Shown one piece after another: positions 2,990 through 33,153 of a DNA stretch of 64,000 bases; the stretch's first letter is position 1; each line of letters opens with the position of its first letter. This DNA is from Dictyostelium discoideum (lineage: Eukaryota): NCBI GenBank assembly GCA_000004695.1, contig CM000150.2, positions 2,880,001-2,944,000 of the forward strand, written 5' to 3'. The position numbers and the translations under genes were made by a program. Under the pieces are notes generated by a model. The model was not told where the DNA came from. It saw nothing but the letters and a program-made list of their open reading frames with translations, and made no database searches.

Positions 2990-3106
2990 AAAAAGAAAAA
3001 AAGAAATTTTTATAACCAACTTTCCACCATAATTTATTATAATTTTTTTAATTAATTCCTTTTTTTGAAGAAGGTGTTGATTTATGTATAAATGAAAATT
3101 CTGGAA

Positions 3107-4312
3107 TTAATCAATTACTAAATATTAATAAAAGTAAATTAAAAAATAATAATAATATTAAAAAAAACAAATAAATAAAAAAATAAATAAATAATATTTC
3201 ATATAACTTACTGTCATTGGAAATTGGTTTTTTGGGTGTTGACAAGAAACTTGTTGAAAGATTTTTTGGAGGTGCCATTATTTCATTTTGTTGAATAATT
3301 TTTTGTGGTTTCTGTTGTTGAAGTGGTTGTTGAGGTTGTTGCTGTTGTTGTACTCCAGAATGTTTTACTGTAATTGGTGACGAACAAAATGATGGAGATC
3401 GATAATTTGATTTAATATTTTTTATTCCATTTATTTGTCTATTTTGAGTAGGAGAATTTCTTGATAAATATCCACTTTGATTTAATTTAAATCCATATGT
3501 TGGTGGTATAATTATATTATTATTATTATTATTATTAATATTATTATTATTATTGGTATTATTGTTTTGGTTATTGATATTGTTTTTATTAGTGATTAAA
3601 TTATTAATACTAATGTTACTATTTTCAATTATACTATTATTTAAATTATTATTATTATTATTATTATTTAAATTATTATTGTTATTATCATTATTTTTAA
3701 TATTATTATTTAAATTATTCATATTTTCTTTTAAAGATAAATAAAGTTCTTCTAATTTTCTTTTTTGTCTTGTTTTTTCAGCAAGTTTTTCTGTTAATTC
3801 CACAATTTCCCTTTTATCATTTTCACCATCATCTTTTTGTAATTTTAATTGTTTTTCTAATGATTCAATTTTAAAAATTAATTCTTCATTTGATTTTTTT
3901 AATTGTTCGAATTGATTCATAGATTGTTGTGCTTGATAAATATAACTTTGAAGATAAACACTAGTTTGATAATTAAAAAATTCTATTGCTTTTTCTGCCA
4001 TTAATAAAACTAAAATTTTAAATTGTTAGTTTTTTAAACAATTTTTTTTTTTTTTTTTTTTTTTATACTTTTTTTAGGAGATAATCCAAATAATAAAATA
4101 TTCTTTTCAATTGAAGAATCAATTGTTGTACCAAATAATGAATCTTTTGAAACCAAACTATTATCACAAATTGGACATAATCTATCATCTGTACATAATT
4201 TATTTGAAGCACATAAATCACAAAAAATATGAGAACAAGATGTAATTATACATCTATCATTTTCAATTATTTCTTTCCAACAACTATTACAATGAATACC
4301 AATTGATTCCAT
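3107..4312 (-). CDS. RING-finger plus coiled-coil protein, HEI10/CCNB1IP1-like E3 ligase. The model has about 3 exons.
   Basis: Exon 1 (4312 to ~4069) reads MESIGIHCNSCWKEIIENDRCIITSCSHIFCDLCASNKLCTDDRLCPICDNS, a C3HC4 RING. A GTATAA donor lies at ~4068 and an ATAG acceptor at ~3983. Exon 2 (~3982-3212) is a coiled coil (...QSMNQFEQLKKSNEELIFKIESLEKQLKLQKDD...) followed by an N/Q-rich region. A GTAAGT donor lies at ~3211, and a short last exon ends with TAA at 3107-3109. The RING and coiled-coil ORFs are only ~30 bp apart on the same strand, so fusing them by an intron is more plausible than two separate genes. Confidence 0.45.
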
Positions 4313-4681: not shown

Positions 4682-6392
4682 TTACATTCTTAATAAACGA
4701 TCTTTTGAACCAGAAGCAACTCTATCACCATCAGGGGACCAATCAACAGTATAAACTTCATCAGCATGACCAGGTAATTCTTTTTCCATTTTTTTAGTTT
4801 TAATATCCCAAATTTTCAAAGTACTATCTTTACTACCACTAACTAAATATCTACTATCAGAAGACCAACAAACTTGATATACAGCACCAACATGACCTCT
4901 GAAATTACCCAAAAATTTACCAGATTGGCCATCCCAAAGTTTAATTGACTTATCGAATGAAGCACTTGCGAAATAACGACCATCTGGTGAAAAACTAACC
5001 AAATTGATTAATTGCTGATGACCTGTTAAACGAGAGATTGAAGTTTTAGTAACTGATGGATTCCACATGATAACGGTGAAATCATCGGAACCACTAATTA
5101 ATATCTCCATTCCTTTGCTCTTTGCCTTTACATCATTATAACGCTCCAATGCAACTCTTTGTGCTTCTTCCAATGTATCATATTCTTTACCTGTATGATC
5201 GTATGATCCTGTTCTCAAAACGTAATCTGTATTCAATGCCAATGTATTAACCCAATGTGCATGACCATCCAATACTCTAACTAATCTACCATCGGTTGTA
5301 TTAAAAACTCTAACAGTTCTATCTTGTGATCCAGAATAAATCAATCCCTCTCCACCCCATTTCAAACATGTAACTGACATTGTATGACCTGATAATGACA
5401 TTAAATTTTTACAAGATTCTGTATCCCAAATTCTAATTGTTGAATCTTTAGATGATGATGCTAATCTAACACATTTTGGATTTCTATTATTTTTGTTTTT
5501 TTTTTTTTTAAAAAAAAAATTAATTAAAATAATTCAACATATATCAATTAATTTAATTTAATTTAATTTAATACATACAAATGAAATGGTTCCCATGATA
5601 AACCGGTTATAAATTTAGTATGACCTTTTAAAGTTGAACCTAATTGTTTACCAGTTTGTGGACACCAAATTCTGATGTCACCTTCCATACCGGCAGTTGC
5701 AATCTTTTTACTATCTGGTGACCAAGCTACTTGAAGTACCCAATTTGTATGACCTTTTAATGTATGGGTTGGTGTACTTGTATAGATATCCCAAATTCTA
5801 ACGGTTGTATCACCACCAACCGATACAAATCCTTTACCATCTGGACTGAATGCACAATTCAATACTGCCTCTGTATGACCTGACATTGAACTTGCACATC
5901 TTGTAACTGGTCTAACACGAAATACTGCTTGTGGTTGATAATAAATACTTAATGTTGTTTCATCTGATAATCCTTCTAAATGATTCTTTAAATTATTTGT
6001 AATCTCTTGATCATTAACAAAAAATGAGTATGGTAATTGTTCATCCTTTTGAAAAATATAAAAATATAAATATAAAATAAAATATATTAATATTTATATA
6101 TATATATATATATTATATATTAATTATTATCATTATTAATTTTTACATTATTTAATAAACTATTAATAAGCATTTGTAATTGTTCAGTTGTAACATTTTG
6201 TGATATATTGATTGGTGGACCAGTTGTATCATTTTCACTATCTTTATTTTTAAATTGTACAATTAGATTTAATGATGGTTCTTGTGATTCTAATTTTATT
6301 GCTTCACCAACTGTTGTTGGGATATATTCTGGTTTTGAAAACCCAAACTTTTGTTTGGGCATTTGTTTAGTTTTTGGTCTTTCATTACTCAT
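4682..6392 (-). CDS. Notchless homologue (NLE1): WD40-repeat ribosome-biogenesis protein with an N-terminal Nle domain. Three exons.
   Basis: Exons are ~6147-6392, ~5579-6045 and 4682-~5483, with GTAAAA and GTATGT donors and AG acceptors. The protein contains ...IYYQPQAVFRVRPVTRCASSMSGHTEAV... and ...LISGSDDFTVIMWNPS...ASASFDKSIKLWDGQSGKFLGNFRGHVGAVYQVCWSSDSRYLVSGSKDSTLKIWD...LPGHADEVYTVDWSPDGDRVASGSKD. These stretches are near-collinear with metazoan Notchless. Confidence 0.85.
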
Positions 6393-18938: not shown

Positions 18939-19652
18939 TTAATAAAATTCTTCTTTGATAACTAAATCATTTGACCATTGTTGAACGGCCCATTGATTCT
19001 TTTTGATACGATGTCCTCCATATGTGAAATCCATATACATTTCATATGCTGTATTATTACCATCAACGAGTAATTTTAATAATTTTGCTTCATGAATTGT
19101 TGCATTATTTACAAAAGATTCTTCAGCTTTACGATTTGCAGATTTACCAACACGATTAGTTGAATCACCTTTTTCATACATAATTACATCTTGATGATAA
19201 TATTTATCGAATACTTCTAATATTTTATTATCTTGAATACCTTTAATAATTGATTCTAAATTTGATTTGATATTAGTTGATGGTTCTGGTGTTGATGGTG
19301 TTTTAATTTCAACGAATTCTTCTTTAATAATTAAACCATTTGACCATTGTTGGAATGCCCATTGACTCTTTTTGATACGATGTTCGCCATATGTGAAATC
19401 CATAAACATTTCATATGCTGTATTATCACCATCTACGATTGTTTTTAATAATTTTGCTTCATGAATTGTTGCATTATTTACAAAAGATTCTTCAGCTTTA
19501 CGATTTGCAGATTTACCAACACGATTAGTTGAATCACCATTTTCATACATTACAATTTCATCATGATAATATTTATCGAATACTTCTAATATTTTATTGG
19601 TTTGAATCCCTTTAATAACTGCTTCTAAATTTAATTTATTATTTGATGACAT
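18939..19652 (-). CDS. SnoaL/NTF2-like tandem two-domain protein, 237 aa. Copy 1 of 3.
   Basis: Intronless ORF. The protein is an internal duplication of a ~110-aa unit (…ILEVFDKYYHDEIVMYENGDSTNRVGKSANRKAEESFVNNATIHEAKLLK…DGDNTAYEM…FTYGEHRIKKSQWAFQQWSNGLIIKEEF). The pattern fits the SnoaL_2/NTF2-like fold. Confidence 0.6.
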   Translation of the reverse strand: MSSNNKLNLEAVIKGIQTNKILEVFDKYYHDEIVMYENGDSTNRVGKSANRKAEESFVNNATIHEAKLLKTIVDGDNTAYEMFMDFTYGEHRIKKSQWAFQQWSNGLIIKEEFVEIKTPSTPEPSTNIKSNLESIIKGIQDNKILEVFDKYYHQDVIMYEKGDSTNRVGKSANRKAEESFVNNATIHEAKLLKLLVDGNNTAYEMYMDFTYGGHRIKKNQWAVQQWSNDLVIKEEFY

Positions 19653-20454: not shown

Positions 20455-21168
20455 TTAATAAAATTCTTCTTTGATAACTAAATCATTTGACCATTGTTGA
20501 ACGGCCCATTGGTTCTTTTTGACACGATGTTCACCATATGTGAAATCCATATACATTTCATATGCTGTATTATTACCATCAACGAGTAATTTTAATAATT
20601 TTGCTTCATGAATTGTTGCATTATTTACAAAAGATTCTTCAGCTTTACGATTTGCAGCTTTACCAACACGATTTGTTGAATCACCTTTTTCATACATAAT
20701 TATATCTTGATGATAATATTTATCGAATACTTCTAATATTTTATTATCTTGAATACCTTTAATAATTGATTCTAAATTTGATTTGATATTAGTTGATGGT
20801 TCTGGTGTTGATGGTGTTTTAATTTCAACGAATTCTTCTTTAATAATTAAACCATTTGACCATTGTTGGAATGCCCATTGACTCTTTTTGATACGATGTT
20901 CGCCATATGTGAAATCCATATACATTTCATATGCTGTATTATCACCATCAATGATTGTTTTTAATAATTTTGCTTCATGAATTGTTGCATTGTTTACAAA
21001 AGATTCTTCAGCTTTACGATTTGCAGATTTACCGACACGATTAGTTGAATCACCATTTTCATACATTACAATTTCATCATGATAATATTTATCGAATACT
21101 TCTAATATTTTATTGGTTTGGATACCTTTAATAACTGCTTCTAAATTTGCTCTATTATTTGATGACAT
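20455..21168 (-). CDS. SnoaL/NTF2-like tandem two-domain protein. Copy 2 of 3.
   Basis: It is about 95% identical to the copies at 18939 and 22023. The flanking intergenic DNA is also repeated. Confidence 0.6.
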   Translation of the reverse strand: MSSNNRANLEAVIKGIQTNKILEVFDKYYHDEIVMYENGDSTNRVGKSANRKAEESFVNNATIHEAKLLKTIIDGDNTAYEMYMDFTYGEHRIKKSQWAFQQWSNGLIIKEEFVEIKTPSTPEPSTNIKSNLESIIKGIQDNKILEVFDKYYHQDIIMYEKGDSTNRVGKAANRKAEESFVNNATIHEAKLLKLLVDGNNTAYEMYMDFTYGEHRVKKNQWAVQQWSNDLVIKEEFY

Positions 21169-22022: not shown

Positions 22023-22736
22023 TTAATAAAATTCTTCTTTGATAACTAAATCATTTGACCATTGTTGAACGGCCCATTGATTCTTTTTGACACGATGTTC
22101 TCCATATGTGAAATCCATATACATTTCATATGCTGTATTATTACCATCAACGAGTAATTTTAATAATTTTGCTTCATGAATTGTTGCATTATTTACAAAA
22201 GATTCTTCAGCTTTACGATTTGCAGCTTTACCAACACGATTTGTTGAATCACCTTTTTCATACATAATTATATCTTGATGATAGTATTTATCGAATATTT
22301 CTAATATTTTATTATCTTGAATACCTTTAATAATTGATTCTAAATTTGATTTGATATTAGTTGATGGTTCTGGTGTTGATGGTGTTTTAATTTCAACGAA
22401 TTCTTCTTTAATAATTAAACCATTTGACCATTGTTGGAATGCCCATTGACTCTTTTTGATACGATGTTCGCCATATGTGAAATCCATAAACATTTCATAT
22501 GCTGTATTATCACCATCTACGATTGTTTTTAATAATTTTGCTTCATGAATTGTTGCATTGTTTACAAAAGATTCTTCAGCTTTACGATTTGCAGATTTAC
22601 CGACACGATTAGTTGAATCACCATTTTCGTACATTACAATTTCATCATGATAATATTTATCAAATACTTCTAATATTTTATTGGTTTGAATACCTTTAAT
22701 AACTGCTTCTAAATTTAATTTATTATTTGATGACAT
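22023..22736 (-). CDS. SnoaL/NTF2-like tandem two-domain protein. Copy 3 of 3.
   Basis: The N-terminal half matches copy 1 (FMDF). The C-terminal half matches copy 2 (IIMYEKGDSTNRVGKAANRK, GEHRVKKNQ). Confidence 0.6.
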   Translation of the reverse strand: MSSNNKLNLEAVIKGIQTNKILEVFDKYYHDEIVMYENGDSTNRVGKSANRKAEESFVNNATIHEAKLLKTIVDGDNTAYEMFMDFTYGEHRIKKSQWAFQQWSNGLIIKEEFVEIKTPSTPEPSTNIKSNLESIIKGIQDNKILEIFDKYYHQDIIMYEKGDSTNRVGKAANRKAEESFVNNATIHEAKLLKLLVDGNNTAYEMYMDFTYGEHRVKKNQWAVQQWSNDLVIKEEFY

Positions 22737-32749: not shown

Positions 32750-33110
32750 TTTAAAAACTGACACCGGCACTGACACCTCTTGAAAAACCAAAATTATTTT
32801 TTTTTTTTAAAAAAACAAAATACACAACAAACATCTCACGATTTTTTTATAGTCTGGGACAAAATTTCATCAAATACATATGTAAAAGTCTAATAACGCA
32901 TTTAAATGAGACCTTAGCAAATTGTATCACCCAATAAAAAAACATGACACCTTTGCAAAGTGTGTCATCCAGTTGGTTTTCAATGACACCTAAGCATGGA
33001 GGTTTATTGTAATTGTCTCCTAAAAATGGCGCCTTAAGAAAGTGTGTCATCCATTTTTTTTTCAATGACTCCTTAGCATAGTGGTTTATTGTAATTGTCT
33101 CCAAAACGTT
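32750..33110. repeat. GC-richer non-coding block with an ~85 bp tandem duplication and reiterated, partly palindromic (A)TGACACC / GTGTGTCATCC motifs.
   Basis: Similar units occur at 32975-33060 and 33060-33125 (caatgacacctaagcatggaggtttattgtaattgtctcc... versus caatgactccttagcatagtggtttattgtaattgtctcc...). atgacacctttgcaaagtgtgtcat at ~32943 is a near-perfect palindrome. tgacacc occurs at about 32759, 32770, 32944 and 32984. Confidence 0.6.
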
Positions 33111-33153
33111 AGAAGTTAGCAGTTGGTCCAGGGTTCAACTCCCTGAGGGGTCT
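33066..33153 (+). pseudogene. tRNA-like fragment with an intact T-arm and acceptor pairing but no clear anticodon arm. Likely a tRNA pseudogene or tRNA-derived repeat.
   Basis: CAGGG-TTCAACT-CCCTG at ~33129-33145 is a perfect T-stem/loop. The 5' strand GACTCCT (~33066) pairs with the 3' strand AGGGGTC (~33146), with one G-U pair. A D-loop-like AGTGGTT is present. I cannot fold a 17-nt anticodon arm. The fragment sits inside an ~85 bp tandem repeat. Confidence 0.3.

Follow-up and report, generated by a model that had tools for sequence, protein, structure and literature searches.

The window analysed here, a 64,000-nt stretch of Dictyostelium discoideum DNA, carries one three-exon gene on the minus strand at 4312-3048. 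On sequence comparison, its product is the D. discoideum orthologue of HEI10/CCNB1IP1; HEI10, a RING-plus-coiled-coil ubiquitin ligase, marks the sites of meiotic crossovers in mammals and plants. The locus is DDB_G0269498 on chromosome 1, annotated merely as "hypothetical / RING-type domain-containing protein". With a probability of about 80%, we read it as a single-copy-looking HEI10/CCNB1IP1 orthologue of three exons and 364 aa that acts in crossover designation with Msh4-Msh5, a role suggested by orthology. A HEI10 orthologue in D. discoideum is already known, having been shown in Fig. 8 of Chelysheva et al. 2012 (PMC3405992), and the main addition here is the corrected gene model. The accession of the D. 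discoideum sequence was not found in the text or supplements of that paper, and we therefore infer its identity with DDB_G0269498. HEI10 is not included in two amoebozoan meiosis inventories (PMC6263441, PMC2488364), and a literature text search for DDB_G0269498 gave no match and no expression, localisation or mutant data.

Gene model and the C-terminal exon

Two listed minus-strand ORFs, a RING ORF and a coil ORF, lie 32 bp apart. ORF 4312-4034 encodes MESIGIHCNSCWKEIIENDRCIITSCSHIFCDLCASNKLCTDDRLCPICDNSL..., and ORF 4001-3111 starts MAEKAIEFFNYQ... and is helical and heptad-like, as a preliminary description of this DNA had reported. That description had also taken the two ORFs for exons of one gene, and manual splicing of the listed ORFs bore this out: intron 1 fuses them in frame (Table 1), and the spliced products are identical throughout to the public D. 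discoideum proteins XP_646013.1/Q55DW8, which is DDB_G0269498 (350 aa), and KAM9941273.1 (364 aa). The GC content of the exons is 0.21-0.23 compared to 0.08 in intron 1, which is placed between K81 and I82 at the boundary of linker and coiled coil. When exon 1 was analyzed by tblastn, matches at 4297-4076 were obtained with HEI10 of Mastigamoeba, Balamuthia, mammals and Heterostelium. The gene had first been placed at 3107-4312. The upper end of this span was right, while 3107 is wrong as the gene end because the read-through ORF continues into intron 2; the gene reaches 3048 by way of a second intron and a third exon. In the 364-aa product, a C3HC4 RING (C8-C49) is followed by one helix of ~110 residues (79-189), then by a disordered tail rich in Asn and Gln and, at the C-terminus, by a short conserved motif, which together with a basic tip is the product of exon 3.

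Table 1. Positions in the window of the features of the HEI10/CCNB1IP1-type gene
Feature	Position	Strand	Description
Exon 1	4069..4312	-	244 nt; Met1 to first base of codon 82; RING and linker ending G76-L-S-P79
RING finger core	4166..4291	-	all eight zinc ligands; Pfam zf-RING_5
Intron 1	4010..4068	-	59 nt, GTATAA...TTTTAG, phase 1, GC 0.08
Exon 2	3212..4009	-	798 nt; coiled-coil helix, disordered tail, then D347 of C-terminal motif
Coiled-coil helix part of exon 2	4009-3687	-	to about residue 189
Disordered tail part of exon 2	3686-3216	-	residues 190-346, Asn/Gln/Ser/Pro-rich
Intron 2	3101..3211	-	111 nt, GTAAGT...TTCCAG, phase 1, GC 0.09
Exon 3	3048..3100	-	53-nt mini-exon, stop TAA at 3050-3048; encodes (K)FSFIHKSTPSSKKGIN

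The AX4 reference model (350 aa) takes an upstream AG at 3119/3118 as its acceptor and ends ...NDIID. Judged by sequence conservation, this acceptor is the wrong one and the C-terminal mini-exon (DKFSFIHKSTP...) is missing from the model. Since it lacks a motif that five dictyostelid-type sequences have kept, the 350-aa model was not accepted as the main isoform; it could be a minor isoform. A model of two exons with read-through (380 aa, with ...LLLLIFSN at its end) is absent from all collections; it enters AT-rich intron sequence and was therefore rejected. No transcript-derived contigs carrying the 350-aa or the 364-aa isoform were found, the matching records being genomic only. As the AX4 model is without the conserved C-terminal exon, constructs for tagging, knockout or expression designed from it would omit or disrupt this exon; higher-order assembly of human HEI10 requires the corresponding part of its tail (PMC13174674).

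The tail preceding the motif is disordered and of low complexity, with pLDDT below 55 in the AlphaFold model and 48 Asn among its 157 residues. The terminal motif follows the pattern F-x-Phi-I-(H/K)-(K/R)-x-T-P with basic residues after it. As DK[FY]x[FMLY]I[HK][KR]xTP it was also found in P. violaceum, H. album (in the frame of a GTAAGT donor), A. subglobosum and P0048, and the mini-exon motif is conserved in 5 of the 5 dictyostelid-type sequences examined. In the family alignment it is aligned with the ..RPETP.. tails of other HEI10s, the tail ending ..RPETP.. in non-dictyostelid amoebae and ..IHKxTP.. in dictyostelids. The terminal motif resembles the Phe patches and basic tip of human HEI10 in position and composition alone, its match to the human FFSF patch being weak (a 21-column BLASTP segment, E=0.81).

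Amoebozoan orthologues were identified in Heterostelium album (PPL_04682), Polysphondylium violaceum (CYY_007485), Acytostelium subglobosum (SAMD00019534_068990) and, under the name 'CCNB1IP1', in Mastigamoeba and Balamuthia. Identity in the N-terminal core ranges from 36 to 59% and is 53% to the reconstructed P. violaceum orthologue and likewise to the annotated H. album protein; the eight zinc ligands are kept in all four dictyostelids compared. Both D. discoideum introns have position and phase in common with P. violaceum (intron 1 falling between ND and V), and the codon (at the D-K junction) and phase of intron 2 are common to P. violaceum and H. album. For each of the three dictyostelid orthologues the public model is either incomplete or shifted in frame: those of P. 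violaceum and A. subglobosum are without the RING exon, whereas that of H. album uses a different donor and loses the C-terminal motif. With orthologues mis-modelled in three other dictyostelid genomes, the gene may seem absent or RING-less in automated surveys.

Family placement and predicted structure

In a phmmer search of the PDB, the top match was human CCNB1IP1/HEI10 (9ges, E=1.1e-17), covering RING and coil at residues 20-175, while the second, RNF4 (1e-8), covered the RING only. Mammalian CCNB1IP1 was matched by BLASTP at 4e-21 over 201 columns. A HEI10 profile scored 158.6 bits at residues 5-207; it had been built without dictyostelids from proteins chosen for similarity to the query, and the independent anchor is therefore the single-sequence PDB match. 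The comparison of family profile A1 with the PDB is likewise not independent evidence, because A1 includes a mammalian CCNB1IP1. Exhaustive HMMER searching of 1.84 billion proteins gave 411 family matches, almost all 250-400 aa long and aligned from their own N-termini to query residues 6-177; relatives named CCNB1IP1 at source came from Mastigamoeba, Balamuthia, Streblomastix and mammals. The exhaustive search was needed, as searching a word-indexed protein collection with the 181 N-terminal residues returned only two matches and missed the query's own cluster. At the level of sequence similarity, a chance match is excluded by the phmmer E-value and the 411 family matches. The best match outside the gene's own lineage is thus HEI10/CCNB1IP1 over RING and coil, and the HEI10/CCNB1IP1-type RING-coil architecture originally proposed is in agreement with the sequence, profile and Foldseek comparisons alike, none of which favored another RING family.

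Pfam reported RING families alone, with zf-RING_5 matched at 5.3e-11 over residues 7-50. The zinc ligands C8, C11, C26, H28, C31, C34, C46 and C49 are all present (C3HC4), and the RING core contains the HEI10/CCNB1IP1 signature T24-x-C26-S-H28-x-F30-C31. The motif said at the outset to be common to HEI10s was recovered as TSCSHIFC, which aligns with TACSHIFC of mammalian CCNB1IP1. In an alignment of 36 family sequences there is no variation at T24, C26, H28, C31, C46 and C49, and conservation is 90% or more at C8, N9, C11, F30 and P47. The RING occupies residues 5-63 of the AlphaFold2 model with a pLDDT of about 90.

Downstream of the RING, the linker and helix cap G-L-x-P is followed by the F-[WF]-x-Y-Q block, both found in HEI10/CCNB1IP1; in the same alignment F92 and Q96 are invariant, and G76 and P79 reach 90% conservation or more. 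Residues with described roles in the human tetramer core (P82, L86, L93, F95, W96 and Y98; PMC13174674) correspond to P79, L83, I90, F92, F93 and Y95 and are kept. The coil segment aligns with residues 84-184 of the human HEI10 coil, and at its end EKTRQKRKLEELY fits the family consensus EKxRQKRKLQELY, giving a coil of ~100-110 residues. AlphaFold predicted a helix at 79-189 with pLDDT 94-98. The heptad signal itself was modest, the hydrophobic fraction at a/d positions being 0.65 compared to 0.56 in shuffles and reached by 7 of 500 shuffles. The heptad-rich coil of the preliminary description is thus upheld as a predicted coiled coil mainly by homology to the solved HEI10 coil and by the AlphaFold helix. 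With the AlphaFold2 model as query, the top Foldseek match was 9ges, 'Crystal structure of HEI10', over 175 columns. Human fibre-lattice residues are changed in the family alignment (Y22 to R20, W24 to I22, R43 to D42 and R63 to G61). As these contacts are not conserved, higher-order assembly may proceed in a different way, as in Arabidopsis.

Proposed role and alternative readings

As suggested by its human and Arabidopsis orthologues, the protein would form a rod-like tetramer, in which two parallel coiled-coil dimers meet head to head and the four RINGs cluster at the middle of the rod. The tail motifs would drive concentration-dependent assembly into foci, by which E3 ubiquitin-ligase activity would be turned on. 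In the zygote (macrocyst), HEI10 would gather at some of the recombination intermediates along with Msh4-Msh5 and Mlh1-Mlh3, which are retained, and would designate these intermediates as class I crossovers, the breaks being made without SPO11. AtHEI10 has been shown to be a ZMM protein (Chelysheva et al. 2012, PMC3405992), and Msh4, Msh5, Mlh1 and Mlh3 were scored as present in Dictyostelium (Malik 2008, Table 2). The absence of SPO11, to which attention had been drawn beforehand, is backed by PMC6263441 and PMC6369745. Dictyostelids have also lost HOP1, ZIP4, DMC1 and REC8 (PMC6263441) as well as Mer3 (Malik 2008), so the usual partners and platform of HEI10 are partly missing. Dictyostelium shows crossovers spaced regularly at 500-1000 kb, and the way in which its crossover sites are chosen has been termed mysterious (PMC6369745). 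We tentatively put forward, as a possibility we rate below even odds, a stripped-down designation system in dictyostelids, in which coarsening of HEI10 with Msh4-Msh5/Mlh1-Mlh3 might pattern non-SPO11 breaks without ZIP4, MER3, HOP1 or DMC1 and in which assembly might be switched by a proline-directed phospho-site in the dictyostelid-specific mini-exon motif DKFxFIHKxTP. If true, crossover-site choice in an SPO11-independent meiosis would have its first molecular handle in HEI10. A conserved and apparently functional HEI10 is a candidate for the crossover-designation step that can be knocked out.

A true HEI10 orthologue might instead have been kept for a non-meiotic job, such as the ubiquitylation, in growing amoebae, of cyclin B or some other substrate in the cell cycle or DNA repair, with crossovers designated independently of HEI10. 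The first descriptions of mammalian CCNB1IP1 concerned cyclin B and cell-invasion phenotypes, and the name of the protein derives from cyclin B1 binding. The loss of the meiotic partners SPO11, HOP1, ZIP4, DMC1, REC8 and Mer3 would fit such a role, as would the good conservation of the gene in four genera, since its retention needs some selected function. However, HEI10 mutants lose class I crossovers everywhere they were tested (mouse, Arabidopsis; PMC3405992, PMC13174674), and the retained Msh4/Msh5 and Mlh1/Mlh3 and the regular crossover spacing of Dictyostelium represent the very pathway served by HEI10. We therefore regard a non-meiotic function as unlikely and prefer a role in crossover designation.

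It is very improbable that the protein belongs to the sister Zip3/RNF212/ZHP-3 group of SUMO-ligase type and not to HEI10 proper. Members of both groups have an N-terminal RING, a coiled coil and a Ser-rich tail in common and match Pfam zf-RING_5, and there is a distant relationship between the groups (Chelysheva et al. 2012, PMC3405992). Beyond the RING, however, no similarity to Zip3/RNF212 was found: an RNF212 profile scored 16.2 bits at residues 6-49 only, compared to the far higher score of the HEI10 profile, and the BLASTP match to RNF212 (3e-4) extended across just 29 RING residues. The HEI10-specific blocks G-L-x-P...F-[WF]-x-Y-Q and EKxRQKRKLEELY are, in addition, present.

Hardly any weight can be given to the reading of the RING and coil ORFs as two genes, or of the product as an unrelated TRIM-, RNF8- or TRAF-like RING protein with a coil. 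Stop codons do lie between the ORFs in the genomic sequence, and the P. violaceum and A. subglobosum annotations give a coil-only protein. Yet the products of the in-frame GT..AG intron are those of two independent D. discoideum annotations, single homologous proteins of other phyla span both exons collinearly, and the RING exons missing from the P. violaceum and A. subglobosum models sit just upstream of the annotated starts. TRIM- or RNF8-type homology, named beforehand as the finding that would speak against HEI10, was not the best match: the RING is N-terminal, no B-box, FHA, TRAF domain or other TRIM/RNF8 feature was reported by Pfam, and Foldseek matches to RNF8, TRAF6 and TRIM structures were confined to the RING region of ~65-90 residues. 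Least probable of all is a decaying relic, on its way to becoming a pseudogene, of a crossover pathway that SPO11 loss had made superfluous, a reading which the long Asn-rich tail insertion (Asn runs being usual for proteins of D. discoideum) and the loss of several meiotic genes in the lineage might suggest, but which is opposed by the intact reading frame, the canonical splice sites, the retained zinc ligands and family-invariant residues, the 53% core identity and the conservation of a tiny C-terminal exon across distant dictyostelid genera.

Comparison with known HEI10 and Zip3/RNF212 systems

The best sequence and fold match is human/mouse HEI10 (9ges; PMC13174674), with 28% identity over 201 columns and a common layout of N-terminal RING, short linker, coil of ~110 residues and disordered tail. 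Dictyostelium has C-x2-C as its first zinc pair where the human protein has C-x4-C, and the sixth zinc ligand is Cys in Dictyostelium whereas it is His in human HEI10. The Dictyostelium tail is Asn/Gln-rich and ~60 residues longer than that of human/mouse HEI10. The C-terminal aromatic patch, followed by basic residues, reads FSF in Dictyostelium and FFSF in human. Milburn et al. 2026 (PMC13174674) described a tetrameric core of human HEI10, with formation of K63 ubiquitin chains dependent on assembly and a requirement for the Phe-rich tail patches and the basic C-tip. A bulky tag at the N-terminus prevents fibre assembly of human HEI10. Unlike human and mouse, Dictyostelium is without SPO11, HOP1, ZIP4 and DMC1.

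The Zip3/RNF212/RNF212B/ZHP-3 proteins (SUMO-type), distant homologs of HEI10, likewise combine a RING, a coiled coil and a Ser-rich tail and act at crossover sites. Their alignment with the Dictyostelium protein is limited to the RING, and RNF212 has neither the linker nor the coil blocks specific to HEI10.

Arabidopsis/rice HEI10 (PMC3405992) has the conserved N-terminal core in common with the Dictyostelium protein. Plant HEI10 foci depend on the tail and form without the mammalian fibre contacts; plant tails end ..LLLSPxKRP.., while the dictyostelid tail ends DKFxFIHKxTP. Plants, unlike dictyostelids, have SPO11, MER3 and ZIP4. HEI10 is the sole pro-crossover RING protein of plants, which are without RNF212, and this is the situation most likely to hold for Dictyostelium.

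Gene structure of DDB_G0269498 and its neighbours

The DNA here is AT-rich and of the Dictyostelium type. The preliminary description had proposed that a RING ORF and a coiled-coil ORF at 3107-4312 were exons of one gene like HEI10/CCNB1IP1, the ubiquitin ligase marking meiotic crossover sites in plants and mammals. Both ORFs were confirmed, and they were joined in frame across intron 1 as ...GLSPKK|ILLMAEKAIEFF...; the GC content of this intron was 0.08, compared with 0.21-0.23 in the exons on either side. That they belong to a single gene, and that the DNA comes from Dictyostelium, was borne out by exact matches of the spliced products to public D. discoideum proteins. The 350-aa product was identical, residue for residue, to XP_646013.1 / EAL72099.1 / UniProt Q55DW8 in the public protein collections, which is DDB_G0269498 of D. 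discoideum AX4 (chromosome 1, 4.92-Mb contig), where its only names are 'hypothetical protein' and 'RING-type domain-containing protein'. Likewise, KAM9941273.1, which comes from a more recent assembly of D. discoideum, was identical to the 364-aa product. No match to the read-through form, with intron 2 unspliced, was found in these collections, and 3107, the lower coordinate given earlier, is simply the end of the read-through ORF within intron 2. The AX4 reference model, using acceptor A, omits a conserved C-terminal mini-exon (3100-3048); KAM9941273.1 includes it.

Immediately upstream, on the same strand, lies a Notchless homologue, a WD40 gene with several exons and an NLE domain. The end of its last exon is about 370 nt away from the start codon of HEI10, and the DNA between the two genes is 97% A+T. 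Elsewhere in the window, each of three tandem genes is made up of an internally duplicated SnoaL-like (NTF2-fold) unit of ~110 aa (Pfam SnoaL_5, 1.5e-11), and the three look like a recent local gene amplification. The sole tRNA gene in the window probably contains an intron, since it is long for a tRNA.

Coordinates of DDB_G0269498 features and other genes in the window
Feature	Position	Strand	Description
ORF 1 (RING)	ATG at 4312	minus	encodes MESIGIHCNSCWKEIIENDRCIITSCSHIFCDLCASNKLCTDDRLCPICDNSL...
Intron 1	GT at 4068, AG at 4011/4010	minus	59 nt, phase 1
ORF 2	from 4001	minus	starts MAEKAIEFFNYQ..., then charged helical segment, then Asn/Gln runs
Intron 2 donor	3211	minus	consensus GTAAGT, breaks ORF after ...PISND
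Intron 2 acceptor A	AG 3119/3118	minus	product ...NDIID*, 350 aa
Intron 2 acceptor B	AG 3102/3101	minus	product ...NDKFSFIHKSTPSSKKGIN*, 364 aa, stop 3050-3048
Notchless homologue	4682-5886	minus	
Three SnoaL-like genes	18939-19652, 20455-21168, 22023-22736	minus	tandem, near-identical, 237 aa, about 1.5 kb apart
tRNA-Trp (CCA)	33067-33153	plus	87 nt

Assignment to the HEI10 family

The DDB_G0269498 product belongs to the HEI10 family, as first suggested from the sequence, and its RING-linker-coil-tail layout is intact and conserved. When residues 1-181 were compared with all PDB chains by single-sequence phmmer, the top match was human CCNB1IP1/HEI10 (9ges, E=1.1e-17, residues 20-175), with an alignment taking in the RING, the linker and nearly all of the coil. 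BLASTP against mammalian CCNB1IP1 gave 4e-21 over 201 columns. Exhaustive searching of 1.84 billion representative proteins with HMMER returned 411 family matches at E<=1e-3; nearly all of the best 150 of the 411 were 250-400 aa long, with their own N-termini aligned to query ~6-177, and this uniformity indicated one coherent family. Relatives named CCNB1IP1 in their sources came from Mastigamoeba balamuthi, Balamuthia mandrillaris, Streblomastix strix and a 48-member mammalian cluster, and fern, chytrid and Mucoromycota proteins were also found. With mammalian, Mastigamoeba, Balamuthia and Heterostelium proteins as queries, tblastn matched exons 1 (4297-4076) and 2 (4013-3726) in collinear order; the rest of the 64-kb window gave no other match of note.

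Other RING families were weighed against this assignment. For RNF212, the Zip3-type sister group, contrast profiles were built from HEI10 (dictyostelids left out) and from genuine RNF212 sequences; the former scored 158.6 bits over residues 5-207, whereas the latter scored 16.2 bits over residues 6-49, and BLASTP against RNF212 aligned 29 RING residues. Of the domains expected in unrelated families such as TRIM, RNF8 or TRAF, Pfam detected neither a B-box nor an FHA or TRAF domain in the product, its sole match being the RING (zf-RING_5, 5.3e-11). The second PDB match, RNF4 (1e-8), was confined to the RING.

A clear eukaryotic HEI10 homologue, P0002, has been entered under the title 'MAG: hypothetical protein [archaeon]' on JAUXWV010000825.1 (L002, 3589 nt), where it adjoins an ornithine decarboxylase gene. 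In BLASTP it covered 83% of the 181-aa query at 37% identity, and its HMMER alignment extended over query residues 22-175, RING plus coil (E=6e-18); the contig is probably eukaryotic and mis-binned into an archaeal MAG.

The HEI10 assignment in D. discoideum is already known, though databases still label the gene hypothetical, because Chelysheva et al. 2012 (PMC3405992) list an orthologue. They stated that OrthoMCL, eggNOG and reciprocal BLAST reveal orthologues in amoebae, and included a D. discoideum sequence in their family alignment; its accession is absent from the text and supplements of that paper, and we infer that it is DDB_G0269498. HEI10 was not included in the amoebozoan (PMC6263441) or eukaryote-wide (PMC2488364) meiosis inventories. 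The finding is ordinary in kind and moderately useful in context.

C-terminal mini-exon and other dictyostelid orthologues

The P. violaceum homologue ends in ...LLDKFSMIHKNTPVRKTPTNYN, and its last intron matches the GTAAGT intron of D. discoideum in both codon (D|K) and phase. The motif was present as ..DKYMYIKRTP.. in A. subglobosum, as ..DKFSLIHRHTP.. in the 1653-aa fused model P0048 and as ..DKFALIKRTPVHKSGIN.. in H. album, there obtained only with the GTAAGT donor. Because the motif is conserved in other dictyostelids, at the same intron position in P. violaceum, comparison of the sequences makes the 364-aa model the well-supported one, and the conserved element dropped by the AX4 reference model is probably functional. 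In the family alignment the motif stands opposite ..RPETP.., the sequence with which many protist HEI10s end. Its similarity to the human FFSF patch, which together with a basic C-terminal tip is required for higher-order assembly (PMC13174674), was weak (a short 21-column BLASTP segment, E=0.81).

The full P. violaceum gene was reconstructed with five exons encoding 325 aa, with 53% identity to D. discoideum HEI10 over a 185-residue core. Its annotation, CYY_007485 (L001:3555-4796, AJWJ01000402.1), and that of A. subglobosum, SAMD00019534_068990 (L005:~1401, DF837585.1), both lack the RING exon, which sits just upstream of the annotated start. In H. album PPL_04682 (L004:~2715-2790, GL290986.1) the annotated donor is the next GT, 4 nt downstream of GTAAGT, so that the last exon is out of frame and DKFALIKRTP is lost. 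What this analysis adds is a corrected C-terminus for the D. discoideum protein, a mini-exon motif conserved among dictyostelids, and the recognition that the models in three further dictyostelid genomes are faulty.

Proposed role and comparison with human and Arabidopsis HEI10

Judging by orthology, the protein would be a pro-crossover (ZMM) factor that designates class I crossovers, the role that HEI10 has in mouse and Arabidopsis (PMC3405992); it would form tetramers, undergo tail-driven, concentration-dependent assembly and support ubiquitin-chain formation dependent on that assembly (PMC13174674). The literature agrees that dictyostelids lack SPO11, as the preliminary description had noted for Dictyostelium; REC8, HOP1, ZIP4 and DMC1 (PMC6263441) as well as Mer3 are also lost, and Msh4, Msh5, Mlh1 and Mlh3 are kept (PMC2488364, Table 2). 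Many Dictyostelium crossovers are separated by 500-1000 kb, some lie close together, and their designation was termed non-random, its mechanism mysterious, by the authors (PMC6369745). A module of HEI10, MutS-gamma and MutL-gamma working downstream of SPO11-independent lesions fits these data. The main rival explanation is that DDB_G0269498 has been retained for a non-meiotic function.

An AlphaFold2 model, with a 36-sequence family alignment as input, predicted the RING confidently at residues 5-63 (pLDDT about 90), and a single unbroken helix at 79-189 (pLDDT 94-98); the tail was predicted to be disordered, with pLDDT below 55. The top Foldseek match in the PDB was 9ges, 'Crystal structure of HEI10' (E=7.5e-7, 175 columns); the remaining matches covered the RING region alone. 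In the alignment T24, C26, H28, C31, C46, C49, F92 and Q96 were invariant and C8, N9, C11, F30, P47, G76 and P79 were at least 90% conserved; all eight zinc ligands were present in the Dictyostelium protein.

Human HEI10 is a 29-nm tetramer (Milburn et al. 2026, PMC13174674), with a four-helix bundle via L86 and L93, a helix-capping P82 packed on W96 and RING-to-coil contacts via F95 and Y98. These residues correspond to L83, I90, P79, F93, F92 and Y95 in Dictyostelium, and the tetramer core is therefore plausibly conserved. In contrast, the human fibre-lattice residues Y22, W24, R43 and R63 are replaced by R20, I22, D42 and G61, and in this the Dictyostelium protein is similar to HEI10 of Arabidopsis, which assembles into foci and does not make fibres.
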